Below, one piece after another: positions 17,159-61,397 of a stretch of 64,000 bases of DNA. The stretch spans positions 314,154,001 to 314,218,000 of the forward strand of contig OZ024741.1 in NCBI GenBank assembly GCA_964016885.1. Reading direction: 5' to 3'. A model generated the notes under the pieces. That model made no database searches. It saw nothing but the letters and a program-made list of their open reading frames with translations, and was not told where the DNA came from. Origin of the DNA: Eledone cirrhosa. Taxonomy: Eukaryota. How positions within the stretch are numbered: position 1 is the stretch's first letter; each line of letters opens with the position of its first letter. The position numbers and the translations under genes were made by a program.

Positions 17159-17522
17159 AATCAAGGTCTAGCAAATAGAGAGAAAAAGTTTTAAAATAAA
17201 TTTTAAAAGGTTCGCTGTACCTACTATATGTGCCTTTACCGCGCGGTTTCAAATCCCAAAATAAACAGATAATCCAAGCGGATTTTCATTGAGAAGGCGA
17301 CTCTCGTCAGAAGGCTCTTCTCGCTCGGAGAATATAAAATTCCCGAGTTCAAATCACAAACTGGCTGTAAAGGCACATATAGTATGTACAGCGAACCTTT
17401 TAAAATTTATTTTAAAACTTTTTCTCTATTTGCTAGACCTTGATTTGATATGTTCTGGCTTGTTAATTTATTAACCTGCCATAGAACCACATTGGCATAC
17501 GGTTGGATAATATGTGTATCCC
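17159..17522. repeat. Small fold-back (arms ~17159-17239 and ~17367-17446), probable solo PLE pLTR
   Basis: AATCAAGGTCTAGCAAATAGAG..GTGCCTTTAC is the reverse complement of GTAAAGGCAC..TTGCTAGACCTTGATT; begins at (TA)n; contains an HHR. Confidence 0.75.
17232..17315 (-). ncRNA. Type I hammerhead ribozyme with enlarged (~53 nt) stem II domain
   Basis: Minus strand GCCTT-CTGACGA-GAGTC...GATTT-GAAA-CCGCGCGG-TA-AAGGC: stem I GCCTT/AAGGC, palindromic stem III, GUA cleavage triplet. Confidence 0.7.
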
Positions 17523-17538
17523 TATATGTATTTTTACA

Positions 17539-17942
17539 TAAACAAACAAATTATAAACGTAATCATGTAAGTATGTTTTTGAAACGGTGCGCGAGTTTGA
17601 AATTAGAAATTAGAAAATATAAGCTTTCACAGTATTTTAGACTAAAGAAATTTCTAGCCTGATAGTGGGTTTATAACCCTCGAAGAAATGGAAAAAGATG
17701 AGTGTTGCCGTACATGGTAGTCGAACCCACATCTTTGGTTATCCAGACCACTGTGCTACCATTACACGAATACACATCCCATCTCCTTCCATTCGAATTA
17801 GAAGCTATGAATTTAGCAAGTGAATGTTAAACAAACAAATTATAAACGTAAACATGTATGTTTTTGAAACGGTGCGCGAGTTTGAAATTAGAAATTAGAA
17901 AATATAAGCTTTCACCGTATTTTAGACTAAAGAGAAATCTAG
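17539..17942 (-). repeat. ~290-bp tandem unit (about 1.4 copies) containing a tRNA-derived segment (~17705-17780)
   Basis: ~115-bp direct repeat at 17539 and 17828; minus strand GTGTAATGGTAGCAC (A box), TGGT-CTGGATA-ACCA arm, GGGTTCGACT (B box); acceptor stem broken. Confidence 0.6.
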
Positions 17943-18019
17943 TGTGTGTGTGTATATGTATGTATATATGTATGTGTGTGTGTATGTGTGTATATATGCC
18001 TTTATATATATTATGTCAG

Positions 18020-18200
18020 GTCACCAGTTGGTGCTACTGGTAACATGTATCCCAGTACAACCTGTCTCATGGTCGGGTCGTTGGCGACTAAACTGGCAAC
18101 CCCACCAAGGTTTTTTGGTGAGGAGGGTAACTTTGGACATCCTGCAGGACTAAAAACGAAACCTGTCAAATGGCAAGGGAGCTCTTAAGAGTCAATAGCC
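18020..18200 (+). mobile_element. Repeat fragment, probable LINE 5' UTR; also present inverted at 33780-33995
   Basis: CATGGTCGGGTCG..GGCGACTAAACTGGCAACCCCACCAAG matches the reverse complement of ~33905-33945. Confidence 0.55.
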
Positions 18201-18781
18201 ATCCAAAATCACCGGGAGAGATGACCCCTTAGCCTTTGTCAAGGCAGAATTCTAGGAGAAGGAAAACTCTGATATAACACCTGCAACCCTGATGGTATCC
18301 AATGATGTTGACTTGTTCTTCTTTTTGGTAAGTATCATCTTGGTTAAGAGAGCGGGACTGGCTTTGTGCAGTGCCTTTGCTCACTATAAAAGCTTCACAG
18401 CACAGGCATTGCTTTATATCTGGAGATCTCTCTGCACTTGTCATCACATGGTACCATGGGCCCTGAACTATGTGTCAATAATGGTCACAAGTGTAGTCTT
18501 TGTACCAGAGTTTTCAAGTCGCTGGCTGGACTAAAAAGTCACATTCGTTCAGCGCATCGGTAGGGTTCTCCTACATGGATATAAAGTAGTGGCCGTACTC
18601 GAAAACGAGTTGGCAGCCACCATATATATATATATATATATACAGTATATATTATCTATGTGAGTGTGTGTGTTTATTTAAATGTAAGAATGTCGCAAAT
18701 ACATGTCTTGAAATTTGGTATAAAATTGTATCATTGATATCTGTGTCATTAATGATATCTTCAAAATCATCATATTTTTAG

Positions 18782-18913
18782 AATGCAGCGCCGGAAAGTT
18801 TTGTATTGCTTGTAATGAGACATGCCTTTCTATCAACAACATGAACTGTATGAAGCGAAATGGAACATGTTCAGATGGCTGTTCTGCAGGTTATATTGGT
18901 GTCAATTGCCAAG
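18782..18913 (+). CDS. Internal phase-1/1 exon encoding an EGF-like (MEGF/SCARF/laminin-EGF-type) module of a host gene
   Basis: ttttag|AA TGC..CAA G|gtatat; 132 nt; (E)CSAGKFCIACNETCLSINNMNCMKRNGTCSDGCSAGYIGVNCQ, open frame. Confidence 0.8.
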
Positions 18914-18985
18914 GTATATCATAAAATTGTTACGTACTTACTATTCACACTCATACACGCACAAACACATATATATATATCATTA

Positions 18986-58448: not shown

Positions 58449-59265
58449 AGGGCAGGTAAAATTCCCGAGATCCATGGACGAGTTCTCTCCAGCGGTCTCT
58501 GTCCCTCATTATAGCTGCCATGTCCAGCGTCTTCAACAGACCAGTGTGTGTCCTTAGGGCACCAACGTATGTCAACCTCGGTCTTCCTCTTCCAGTGTGT
58601 CCATTCAGGGGCTCCCACAGGAGCACTGAGTGCAGTGTCAACTCTAGATGTCGGTGAACATGTCCAGCTAAACTCAGTCCCCTCTGTGCTACTCTCTAGC
58701 TGACCTTTGGGAAGCTCCCGTACAGCTCTGAGTTCTTCATCCTCAGTGTATACTGATTTATGTTCAGAGTCATCCTCAGCATTCTCGTGTAGCACCCATC
58801 CACCATCTGAGTGAGTTTCTTGGTCAGTGTCCAAGTCTCAGACTCATACAGCAGCACAGACTCTACTACAGCAGCGAAGAGACGGATCTTCAGGTCTTCA
58901 CGAAGGTCTGCCTTCCACACCGATATCAAATTGTGGCACGCCGCCTGGGCTTTGATCTTCCTGTCGAGCACATCATCTTCTGTATTCCCAATCTTTGCTC
59001 CCAGATACAGGAAGTCCTCAACCAATTCTAGCGGCTTCCCCCCTACATTAATAATCGTCTTTGGCTTCTTAATATTTTCTACCATATACTTCAGCTTAAT
59101 CTCATTCATTCTAAGCCCCACACTCATCGACACAGTCTCCGACTCCTGCATCAAATCCTCTGCCTCCTTCACTGTGTTTGTCACCAGAACTATGTCGTCG
59201 ACAAATTCAGCATACGATATCTTTTTCGCCTTAACTCTGCTCTTCTGACCCAATGTTACAGTAAA
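58449..59265 (-). mobile_element. 5'-truncated copy of the 42-45 kb RTE family
   Basis: EFVDDIVLV..FLYLGA..DGCYTRMLR..VHGSREFYLP then (TA)n. Confidence 0.9.
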
Positions 59266-60499
59266 AAGCAAGTGAGTTAATCCGGAGGAGACAAAGGGGA
59301 TTAGTTATGCAGATTTCTAGCCAGTATAGAGAAGGTTAATGTGTTCAATGCATATAGGTTGTTAGACTAATGAACCATGCGATTAAATGTAAAGAGAGAT
59401 AGTTAACAATCGTATAATATGCAGAGTAAAAAATTGTTTTAAAATGCTGGAGAGAATAACAAAGATTTATGAATACATGTATATATTTAATAGCTGTCAA
59501 GAATATCAATATCGCACATTTAAAGAAGGTTTTTCACTTCAGTGATATAATTTAATTTATGAATTAATATGTTATGAAGAATGTTTTTGTAGGCTCTGAT
59601 GGTAATATTGTCTCACTTATTTAGTCATTTTTAATGGACTAATATCGATTTATATTCGATATCCCAACATGTATGTCCATCCTTACTGTGCAATATTTGA
59701 AAAAACTTGTCAGCCATTAAATATATACATATATTTATAAATCTTTGTTATTCTCTCCAGCATTTTCAATACGATATCTATCTATATATATATATTATGA
59801 TGTCGTAGAATTGATAGCAGATCAGATTTTTAATGTTTACTATAGATTTCGATTTCTAGGTTTATGTTCTTGAAAACTTAAGATATGTTCTTCTTCATCC
59901 TTTCTAATCTGTCTTTTTAAGGTTGAGTGGGATACATAGGGCATCATCGTGATATAATCATCTGCTGAGACCCAGAATACACTTCTTCACATATCTCACG
60001 TGTTCGGTCAATGTTTTTTGCTTATTACATCAATGACCGAACTGAATTGCACGACTGTGACGTAAGTGTTGTAATTCGGTTTATGATCCTTCGGTGTTAT
60101 CCGCGTTTCTGCCGGTTGTTAGTATTCAATTCGATTTCCACATTGCGTCTGGTTACTATATAATTCATTTCTTCAATTGCCCTATCCAGATTTCACTTTA
60201 ACGTCTCTTTTTATATTTCTTACTTAATTCCCTACTTATGATTTCGATGTTTCTAATTCATCCATGCTGTATAGGTTATTTGTTTCATCAGCGTTGACAA
60301 AGTTGTATCCGATTGTTTCAGTTTATTTTTGTTTTCCTTTGGGGATTTTGTTCTCTGCAGATATATCTAGTGAATATGTGTTAGAAATGATGATGAAAAT
60401 TTCCTTCAAATGTGTATTTTGTAAACAAACAGCCCGCCGAATTAAGCCGTACAGTGTTCGGCAACCATCGTTGCCATTCTGTTCAACACTGATAAAGGA

Positions 60500-60542
60500 A
60501 CGATGAACTAGTTTCGAGCTTCTTAGCTGTCATCAACACCGT
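60500..60542 (-). ncRNA. Type I hammerhead with C3U core mutation
   Basis: ACGGTG-TTGATGA-C-AGCT-AAGA-AGCT-C-GAAA-CTAG-TT-CATCGT. Confidence 0.55.
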
Positions 60543-60923
60543 ATACCATGCTGTCAGATGATTGAACGTTTGAAAGTATATACTTTCCTTATGCATATTA
60601 ACGGCTGAGCAGCCTGTTCTGCATATCATGTGAGTTAGTCGGCCGGGCGCACCGAAAACAATAAATGGAAAAAATAAAATTTCATTTCTCACTCTTAGTA
60701 CGGCTGATACTTAAATGTAAGTATGTATACGTACATACATATATGTATACAGACGTACAGCCGTATGTATATATATAGATACATGCACACATATATATAT
60801 GTACGTATGGGTTTACCGAACATTTATTATAATGTTCGGTTTGTTTGTAAACAAACAGCCTGAATTAAGCCGTACAGTGTTCGGCAACCATCGTTGCCAT
60901 TTTGTTCCACACTGACAAAGGAT

Positions 60924-60965
60924 CGATGAACTAGTTTCGAGCTTCTTAGCTGTCATCAGCACCGT
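60924..60965 (-). ncRNA. Type I hammerhead, intact core
   Basis: CGGTG-CTGATGA-C-AGCT-AAGA-AGCT-C-GAAA-CTAG-TT-CATCG. Confidence 0.8.
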
Positions 60966-61225
60966 ATACCTTCCTGTCAGATGATTGAACGTTTGAAAGT
61001 ATATACTTTTCTTATGCATATTAACGGCTGAGCAGCCTAATTTGCATATCAAGTGCGATAGTCGGCCGGGCGCACCGAAAACAATAAATGGAAAAAATGA
61101 AATTTCATTTCTCACTCTTAGTACGGCTGATACTTAAATGTATTATCGTTTTCGGTGCGTCCGGCCGATTAACTCACTCGATATGCAAATTAGGCAGCTC
61201 AGCCGTTAATATGACTGCAAGTTAT

Positions 61226-61268
61226 ACAGTGCTGATGACAGCTAAGAAATTCGAAACTAGTTCATCGT
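61226..61268 (+). ncRNA. Type I hammerhead, stem II weakened
   Basis: ACAGTG-CTGATGA-C-AGCT-AAGA-AATT-C-GAAA-CTAG-TT-CATCGT. Confidence 0.6.
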
Positions 61269-61397
61269 TCCTTTTTCAGTGTTGAACAGAATGGCCACGA
61301 TGGTTGCCGAACACTGTACGGCTTAATTCGGGCTGTTTGTTTACAAACAAACCGAACATTATAATAAATGTTCGGTAAACCCATAAGTACATATATA

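Follow-up and report, generated by a model that had tools for sequence, protein, structure and literature searches.

Our main reading, to which we give a probability of about 0.7, is that the non-coding hammerhead repeats (retrozymes) and the coding Penelope-like elements (PLEs) of Eledone cirrhosa share one insertion footprint, with a Penelope RT-endonuclease likely priming on both cut strands of a TA repeat and the non-coding repeats likely being copied in trans. The elements come from a 64,000-nucleotide stretch of contig OZ024741.1 (the window) and were compared with their copies in the genome. The 3′ ends of each family lie at two fixed positions, a proximal (P) and a distal (D) site 51 to 165 nt apart, and the stretch from the P site to the D site is the "tail" of PLEs. 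An insertion of this kind consists of two head-to-head arms, one ending at the P site and the other at the D site, flanked by TA repeats and joined at a junction with short microhomology. The features specific to this footprint are the presence of a 3′ end in both arms and the P/D pairing of these ends, and not the polarity of the inversion, which a sequence-only reading of this DNA had proposed as the diagnostic.

Coding and non-coding elements of the window

Self-BLAST, ORF strand, and the hammerhead descriptor confirmed the six head-to-head insertions, A to F, with the left part in minus and the right part in plus sense (Table 1). The arm sizes proposed earlier were also borne out, with D arms of 45939-51126 and 51305-56491 at 99.8% identity and a C palindrome at 39757-39889, and the extension of the inverted PLE arm, estimated at about 130 to 140 nt, was 142 nt in B and 137 nt in D. 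Positions 16240 and 57675, which had been equated, both terminate at the distal site of the E family. The other proposed pair of recurring ends, 56513 and 61396, lies near unit position 415-6 and does not represent fixed family ends. The targets had been called mostly (TA)n, and 8 of the 12 outer ends do adjoin a TA run, but the right ends of A and C and both ends of F do not. Two further corrections apply: C is not a non-coding element but derives from the 3′ UTR of a coding PLE, the third one found, and the tail is not confined to PLEs, as the right arm of A also enters it, to about 17535.

Table 1. Positions of the insertions and control elements in the window; hammerheads are descriptor predictions
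Feature	Position	Strand	Description
Extra E-family copy	16229..16490	-	5′-truncated, non-inverted; distal site in a TA run common to another element's end
A left arm	17160..17365	-	483-nt unit; P site in (TA)51; hammerhead core 17310, predicted cut 17237, stem II about 53 nt
A right arm	17364..17535	+	past the P site into the tail; a different repeat interrupts it at unit position 88
Control 2, second LINE	27506..29609	+	(ATG)n tail
B inverted arm	29793..30039	-	distal site in TA run
B	30037..33330	+	pLTR, tail, frameshifted RT-EN ORF (30313-32667), downstream pLTR to proximal site in (TA)28
B hammerhead	33160-33275	+	core mutated in window copy
C left piece	39226..39823	-	3′ UTR and pLTR of third Hydra-type PLE; proximal site; hammerhead variant CCGAAGA
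C right arm	39813..39889	+	short; internal, non-fixed end outside TA; atypical
Control 1, RTE-type LINE	42120..45167	+	APE endonuclease and RT
D left arm	45802..51126	-	5′-truncated; tail of 137 nt at 45802-45938; distal end within TA; hammerhead core 46137
D right arm	51127..56490	+	start lies 178 nt farther upstream; open frame of 631 aa; proximal site within TA; hammerhead core 56293, stem II 116 nt
E left arm	56511..57107	-	two 422-nt units joined over a 131-nt deletion; outer end off fixed sites; hammerhead core 56953
E right arm	57108..57677	+	1.35 units; distal site in TA; hammerhead core 57372, predicted cut 57402
F left arm	60418..61142	-	1.7 units; outer end truncated, outside TA; hammerhead core 60959
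F right arm	61143..61397	+	39-nt deletion; 235/255 aligned bases match the unit; outer end off fixed sites

B, C, and D are three Hydra-type PLE families. They encode a single RT ORF with a C-terminal GIY-YIG domain, open in other copies over 784 aa (B) and 830 aa (D); in B, the GIY-YIG matched PF01541 with an E value of 4e-4, under the curated cut-off, and the Hydra RT was missed in the Pfam search. DKT replaces DKG in all three, and the RWK motif is present in B and RWR in C and D. Read by eye, a CxCx5C linker is present in B and D (that of C is partly visible), and the endonucleases of all three have CxxC and CxH with no CCHH. Insertion into (TA)n and a predicted hammerhead in the pLTR are common to the three families. 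The units of B (3.18 kb) and D (6.15 kb) exceed the Hydra trait of less than 3 kb, which is descriptive rather than strict.

The descriptor found seven hammerhead cores in the window and none in each of 20 shuffles. Rfam yielded no hammerhead at the gathering score, nor among the 150 E-value matches listed on six loci, so the putative ribozymes depend on the descriptor. The predicted core was intact in 30/30 loci of D and 22/30 of B, while the C family, whose candidate hammerheads have CCGA in place of CUGA, matched strictly in 1/29. Among the non-coding repeats, an intact core together with stem I of the predicted hammerhead was found in 25/29 loci of E, 23/29 of F, and 21/29 of A.

A and E/F, which are unrelated to each other, are tandem repeats with a predicted hammerhead and no ORF, F being a subfamily of E with 85% identity; their longest ATG frames are 44 to 68 aa and their GC is 0.37 to 0.39. 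The A units are 476 to 490 nt long, with a maximum of about 1.8 units seen per arm, and the E/F units are 422 to 423 nt long, with up to about 10 units (locus L238). Genome copies end at unit positions 92/148 in E and 88/139 in F, the P and D sites of A are at 4/115, and the retrozyme tails are 51 to 56 and 111 nt long versus 137 to 165 nt in the PLEs. Retrozymes end at two internal sites despite longer TA-rich tracts within the unit, and they have no LINE-type tail. A was ruled out as a MITE, its arms being variable and its ends lying at P/D sites. No similarity of A, E, or F to the pLTRs of five window PLEs was seen by BLAST (best E value, 0.03). Searched with a profile of Hydra N-termini, the genome gave 15,224 candidates; the 30 loci fetched from these were all family B and included no retrozyme parent, and the retrozymes beside PLEs in them are separate insertions. 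When folded, the P-D regions form hairpins, but no fold was common to the families. An apparent clustering of retrozyme 5′ stops near the P and D sites was discounted because the choice of query can generate it.

Paired 3′ ends in genome copies, compared with LINE controls

The genome copies were the best 30 matches per query, a sample biased toward young, long copies. Retrozymes were head-to-head in 45 of 83 loci (E, 19/27; F, 16/28; A, 10/28) and non-inverted in 38. At 29 loci both ends lay at fixed sites, and the ends were paired P/D in 27 of these (p 8e-7 versus 0.5); in 16 of the 45 inversions, one end lay away from the fixed sites. Tail-to-tail contacts were seen twice, once across a TA run (L135) and once within a double inversion (L003). 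PLE loci picked blind to their ends were P/D in 28/28 cases (B, 17/17, picked by ORF start; C, 11/11). For PLE loci picked by the tail, the opposite end was the P site in 21/21 loci of B and 17/17 of family D, with queries that contained the tail and were incapable of showing P/P, for which reason no p value is drawn from the pooled 49/49 PLE loci. In the window, only elements B and D form a clean P/D pair. Microhomology of at least 1 nt was present at 24 of 27 clean junctions, compared with 47% expected at random; the other 25 of 52 junctions had a gap or an insert or allowed no clean scoring. TA repeats lie at both retrozyme flanks and would mask any target-site duplication.

Two LINEs of the window served as controls. 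An equal frequency of such inversions in non-PLE repeats had been named as a result that would speak against a PLE mechanism. RTE copies, which also adjoin TA runs, are head-to-head in 7 of 29 loci, which makes polarity unspecific; however, their upstream piece is flipped with the 3′ end not repeated, and a duplicated 3′ end was found in 0/7. The second LINE showed a P/D-type footprint in 0/29 loci, a partly blind comparison in that 10/29 extend past the reference break. Altogether, P/D duplicated ends were absent from the 58 control loci. The earlier proposal of one PLE-type mechanism for coding PLEs and non-coding hammerhead repeats is supported, with P/D ends in both and not in the RTE.

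In L1-type twin priming, both target ends prime, giving a head-to-head junction with short microhomology; where the second primer acts upstream is arbitrary, and only one copy of the 3′ end is made. The RTE control shows this form, as an upstream inverted piece with a single 3′ end was seen in 7/7 RTE inversions and also at one B locus (L080), but not at P/D loci. In the P/D footprint, by contrast, the second primer is at a second fixed site and the 3′ region is in both arms.

Probable priming on both target strands and its alternatives

According to the mechanism that we favor, the Penelope RT-endonuclease would cut both strands of the TA repeat, and one cDNA would begin at each cut end, with each 3′-OH probably priming at one of the two internal start sites through a 2- to 5-nt UA/AU match. 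Both cDNAs would proceed to the RNA 5′ end across an uncleaved or re-ligated hammerhead, would stop independently, and would then be joined via microhomology or short template jumps. If one end only were productive, an ordinary 5′-truncated copy would result. Less firmly, a protein dimer may hold a single RNA for both primers, an arrangement that would account for the near-absence of P/P and D/D pairs. A wider and more tentative proposal, which we hold at a little under even odds, is that Penelope inverted insertions arise when a dimer primes one RNA twice, at one fixed site per cut strand, that tail and inverted pLTR are two aspects of a single phenomenon, and that retrozymes are SINE-like parasites with start sites of their own, unrelated to the sequence of the host PLE.

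It is unlikely, in our view, that each target end uses a separate RNA (or one end a sense and the other an antisense RNA), with the P/D bias coming from asymmetric cleavage or resolution. Non-nested arms would be accounted for equally well in this way, and Craig et al. attribute the tail to endonuclease-mediated resolution (PMC8557442), while antisense templates are among the possibilities raised by Arkhipova et al. (PMC3846280). However, P/P and D/D pairs would be expected from two independent RNPs because the (TA)n target is symmetric, and they were seen in only 2/29 retrozyme and 0/28 end-blind PLE loci. Furthermore, the two arms of family D carry common donor-specific variants (mismatch of 0 to 0.6% within versus 0.2 to 3.2% between loci) and were closer within the locus than between loci in 12/12 cases (mean, 99.6% versus 97.3%), although later arm-to-arm conversion could also produce this identity. 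The B arms were closer within the locus in 7/11 cases, a marginal result. Arm identity in the retrozymes is uninformative and thereby compatible with two RNAs: arms were no closer within than between loci (6/10; p 0.85), and for E the comparison is uninformative, with 3/13 loci lacking an arm pair.

The sequence-only reading had offered priming on both target strands or cDNA snap-back; the former fits best and accounts for all of the PLE pairs, and the latter, in which a single cDNA folds and copies itself into the second arm, has little probability as the general route. Near-perfect hairpins occur (B and C of the window, L010, L013, L045, and L175), the arms of family D are almost identical, the two arms of its short copies begin at the same point, and self-priming has been proposed for PLE palindromes (PMC3846280). 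Nevertheless, at 17 of 49 PLE P/D loci, D of the window included, neither arm is contained in the other: the tailed arm starts downstream of the tail-less arm, and hence neither could have been copied from the other. Most arm starts bear no relation to each other (e.g., 2224 and 2807, or 430 and 3005), the common starts of family D near -205 represent a shared stop at the 5′ edge of the predicted hammerhead (15/48 arm starts within 16 nt), and a fixed second end is not predicted by snap-back. Snap-back may apply to the few loci with a short arm ending internally (C of the window, L171, and L173); the short right arm of C is compatible with either snap-back or later loss.

That a LINE (RTE) enzyme moves the retrozymes, or that the inversions reflect post-insertion breakage at TA tracts or assembly fold-back artifacts, is barely credible: the RTE shares the TA neighborhood and the head-to-head inversions but never repeats its 3′ end, retrozymes have two internal ends in place of a LINE-type tail, and neither breakage nor read artifacts would be expected to produce one-sided tails at the fixed sites of six families.

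Relation to known PLEs and retrozymes

The inverted arms, the tail, and the TA targeting of PLEs are already published; no mention of P/D pairing as a rule, or of its occurrence in retrozymes, was found in the literature searched. The rule bears on two matters called open in the parts of the literature used here, namely, who mobilizes animal retrozymes and how PLE inverted pLTRs with a one-sided tail originate. Being shared by coding PLEs and non-coding repeats but missing from the LINE controls, the footprint provides direct genomic evidence on the retrozyme mobilizer, and the rule yields both a precise prediction for the in vitro PLE assay already available and a simple means to assign unclassified repeats to the PLE machinery.

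Metazoan non-LTR retrozymes are described as tandem units of low GC that lack ORFs and contain a single type I hammerhead, with unit lengths of 150 to 450 bp (Cervera and de la Pena 2020, PMC7229834) or 51 to 972 bp (Li et al. 2026, bioRxiv 10.64898/2026.07.22.740005), and A and E/F match them in being ORF-less tandem units of a few hundred bp with GC below 50% and a predicted type I hammerhead. PLEs have been proposed as their mobilizer on the basis of shared hammerheads, tandem copies, co-distribution, and pLTR similarity (PMC7229834; bioRxiv 10.64898/2026.07.22.740005). Here, by contrast, the evidence is the insertion footprint, with no pLTR similarity to the five resident PLEs compared, and the word "inverted" does not appear in PMC7229834.

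Hydra-clade PLEs carry hammerheads in their pLTRs, insert into (TA)n, and have an inverted 5′-truncated copy with a one-sided tail (PMC8557442). Our families resemble them in these pLTR hammerheads, the (TA)n target, and the one-sided tail, as well as in the C-terminal GIY-YIG, DKT, the CxCx5C linker, and CxxC plus CxH, whereas they differ in the 6.1-kb length of D, RWR instead of RWK in C and D, stems II of up to 116 nt, and tails of 137 to 165 nt compared with 30 to 40 nt. Strict P/D pairing of both ends is not mentioned in the part of that source used here.

For the Poseidon PLE PAc, the in vitro study of Frangieh et al. 2024 (PMC11167929) reports hammerhead cleavage to be dispensable and predicts a dimer. 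The start site there showed no difference between the strands and is not homologous to the cut DNA, whereas a 2- to 5-nt TA match is seen here; the pairing per molecule was outside that study, which, in its main text, does not relate this pair of sites to the paired ends of an inverted insertion or treat retrozymes. The likeness lies in the cleavage and extension of both strands of an AT-rich target and in two internal RT start sites that bound the tail.

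Six inverted insertions in the window

Self-BLAST of the window detected inverted arms at all six sites, with strands assigned from ORFs and a type I hammerhead descriptor that found 7 cores in the window versus 0 in 20 shuffles. On this basis, the left-minus/right-plus layout claimed in the sequence-only reading was true for all six loci. Its claim that the insertions are mostly into (TA)n stood for 8 of the 12 outer ends, which adjoin a TA run, but not for the other 4; positions no more than 12 bp from such a run make up 7.6% of the window. TA runs are landing pads used repeatedly, as seen in the run shared by two elements (see the table). 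Only insertions B and D have a complete canonical pair of proximal (P) and distal (D) 3′ ends in the window; in each of A, C, E, and F, one end or more is cut or atypical.

B, C, and D are three separate coding Penelope-like element (PLE) families with the Hydra-clade marks described in PMC8557442, i.e., DKT, CxCx5C (in B and D), CxxC plus CxH, a C-terminal GIY-YIG, and TA targets. The window copy of C is merely a 3′ UTR piece. The reference sequences of the C family (L151-L180) carry CCGAAGA where CUGANGA is expected, and the strict hammerhead core test was passed by 1 of 29 loci, despite the family being young (99% identity) and abundant. E and F, 85% identical, are subfamilies of one repeat, which has a 422-nt unit, no ORF, and a compact hammerhead. 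A is unrelated to them; its 483-nt unit also lacks an ORF, and its hammerhead has a long stem II. By sequence criteria, A, E, and F would all be classed as non-LTR retrozymes.

Hammerhead cores, fixed 3′ ends, and further repeats (window positions unless stated otherwise)
Feature	Position	Strand	Remark
Hammerhead cores	17310, 46137, 56953, 60959	minus	descriptor
Hammerhead cores	12701, 56293, 57372	plus	descriptor
Fixed 3′ ends, E	92/148		unit positions
Fixed 3′ ends, F	88/139		unit positions
Fixed 3′ ends, A	4/115		unit positions
Fixed 3′ ends, B	114/256
Fixed 3′ ends, C			165 nt apart
Fixed 3′ ends, family D			137 nt apart
RTE 1 inverted loci	L101, L241, L242, L099, L110, L112, L117		L1-type 5′ inversions, about a quarter of sample
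Shared TA run	56489-56513		25 bp; end of young family D PLE and left end of retrozyme E
Decayed PLE of another type	12700-16228	plus	hammerhead-like motifs at 12701 and 16133; ends in TA run common to retrozyme copy at 16229
Further PLE	36376-38168	minus	DKG motif, RT match, not Hydra type
Parts of another AT-rich repeat	16498-16597, 16970-17093, 39912-40013, 40166-40290		ending in TA runs beside A and C
Imperfect inverted repeat	59438-59769		~330 bp span, possible MITE

Pairing of the fixed 3′ ends across the genome

For each query, the best 30 loci of 834-4067 candidates were sampled, which lean young, and long insertions were extended. Counting excluded the copy lying in the window from each set, as well as L208, for which the script gave no class; duplicates of one insertion (L019, L029, L140) were removed, and eight C pairs were merged. 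Every family in these best-30 samples had two fixed 3′ ends, each with a few bases of TA match. A longer TA-rich tract of the E unit (1-40) was seldom used as an end, indicating that TA homology alone does not set the end sites. In C, one short motif (AACTGCTC) follows each of the two start sites; it has only a weak echo in B, D, and A and none in E.

Among the best-30 PLE samples, inversion was found in 23/29 B loci (21 of them P/D), in 21/29 loci of family D, with 7 not inverted and 1 undecided (17 P/D; four ends were set by hand where the script overran into TA), and in 16 of the 21 distinct C loci, with 5 undecided (11 P/D). We failed to find any P/P or D/D locus among the three families, but the B and D queries contained the tail between the two ends and were blind to P/P. 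We therefore took an end-blind B sample, consisting of 20 of 30 loci matched by the ORF N-terminus, picked because the junction was visible and then extended. Both ends were fixed in 17, all of them P/D (17/17), while 2 had a broken end and 1 was open; together with C, P/D pairing was found in 28/28. Three B distal arms (L310, L316, L317) stop at unit 161-163, failing by ~48 nt to reach the proximal site, which might reflect collision with a complex primed at P.

The best-30 retrozyme samples were head-to-head in 19/27 E, 16/28 F, and 10/28 A loci (45/83). Both ends were at fixed sites, within 6 nt (12 nt for F), in 29 of these, with 27 being P/D, one D/D (L010), and one P/P (L206, with TA within the junction). 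This exceeds 0.5, the maximum P/D share under independent choice of ends (one-sided binomial, p = 8e-7). The remaining 16 had one end off the fixed sites, some being visibly cut by a later insertion. At L007, L008, L240, and L246 (G000:C1478), an 85-nt part of the E unit (378-40) that excludes the hammerhead has amplified, forming arrays with 20-35 copies and TA runs between them, a satellite derived from the retrozyme.

Inversion was more frequent in retrozymes than in the two control families together (7/58; Fisher p = 2e-7). The polarity that had been proposed as diagnostic is not, since control RTE 1 was also inverted in 7/29 loci, 7/7 head-to-head with the flipped piece upstream, a second 3′ end being present in none; it is the duplicated, paired ends that discriminate. 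This is the form seen in L1-type twin priming. The control LINE 2 was inverted in 0/29 loci, although 10 of these extend past a break in the reference.

Priming and template

Snap-back, one of two routes previously suggested, requires one arm to be contained within the other. It fails where neither arm is so contained, i.e., in 7/21 B, 5/17 family D, and 5/11 C P/D loci (arm starts read by hand), and in insertion D of the window, where the start of the tail-bearing arm lies 178 nt downstream of that of the tail-less arm. All cases are accounted for by a pair of cDNAs, one per target end; a palindromic (TA)n target would make an identical primer available on both strands. Clean junctions overlapped by at least 1 nt in 24/27 and at least 2 nt in 17/27, where chance would give 47% and 19%. 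Of 52 junctions scored, 25 had a negative value, from an insert, a jump, or a SNP close by; 7/59 were unscorable.

The arms continue across the predicted hammerhead cut, suggesting an uncleaved or re-ligated RNA template, consistent with PMC11167929. Arm starts cluster at the hammerhead 5′ edge (15/48 within 16 nt in family D and 7/52 within 21 nt in B, in samples favoring this region), and short jumps recur at the arm junctions, a pattern that the 5′ end of an RNA, or a strong stall, would be expected to give. In short D insertions (L035 1430-1500, L053, L058), the junctions hold repeated short copies of this edge, resembling serial template jumps at the template end. The arms of family D share donor-specific variants (12/12 above the between-locus median and 9/12 above the maximum), which fits one RNA and also arm-to-arm conversion. 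The comparison of E arm identity within versus between loci gave no signal.

Retrozymes, PLEs, and known systems

The head-to-head insertion feature is real. Comparison of A and E/F with the ends of five window PLEs revealed no sequence link, and the ORF N-terminus profile search yielded no partner PLE, the 30 loci sampled from it all belonging to family B. The retrozyme tail lengths are unlike those of the three PLEs. Mobilization of retrozymes by PLEs, also put forward in the sequence-only reading, has been proposed in PMC7229834, PMC11722881, and bioRxiv 10.64898/2026.07.22.740005, based on shared features, co-distribution, and pLTR similarity. Neither a P/D pairing rule nor inverted retrozyme insertions were found in the literature searched, with subscription journals mostly outside its scope.

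The PLE part of the geometry is already known: published work describes inverted 5′-truncated copies with a one-sided 30-40 bp tail and the TA preference of Hydra (PMC8557442), head-to-head palindromes and self-priming (PMC3846280), extension on both strands from two start sites (PMC11167929), and PLE hammerheads (PMC4209133). To this, the P/D pairing rule and the finding that it also shows in two unrelated retrozyme families make a solid addition, which renders two open questions testable.
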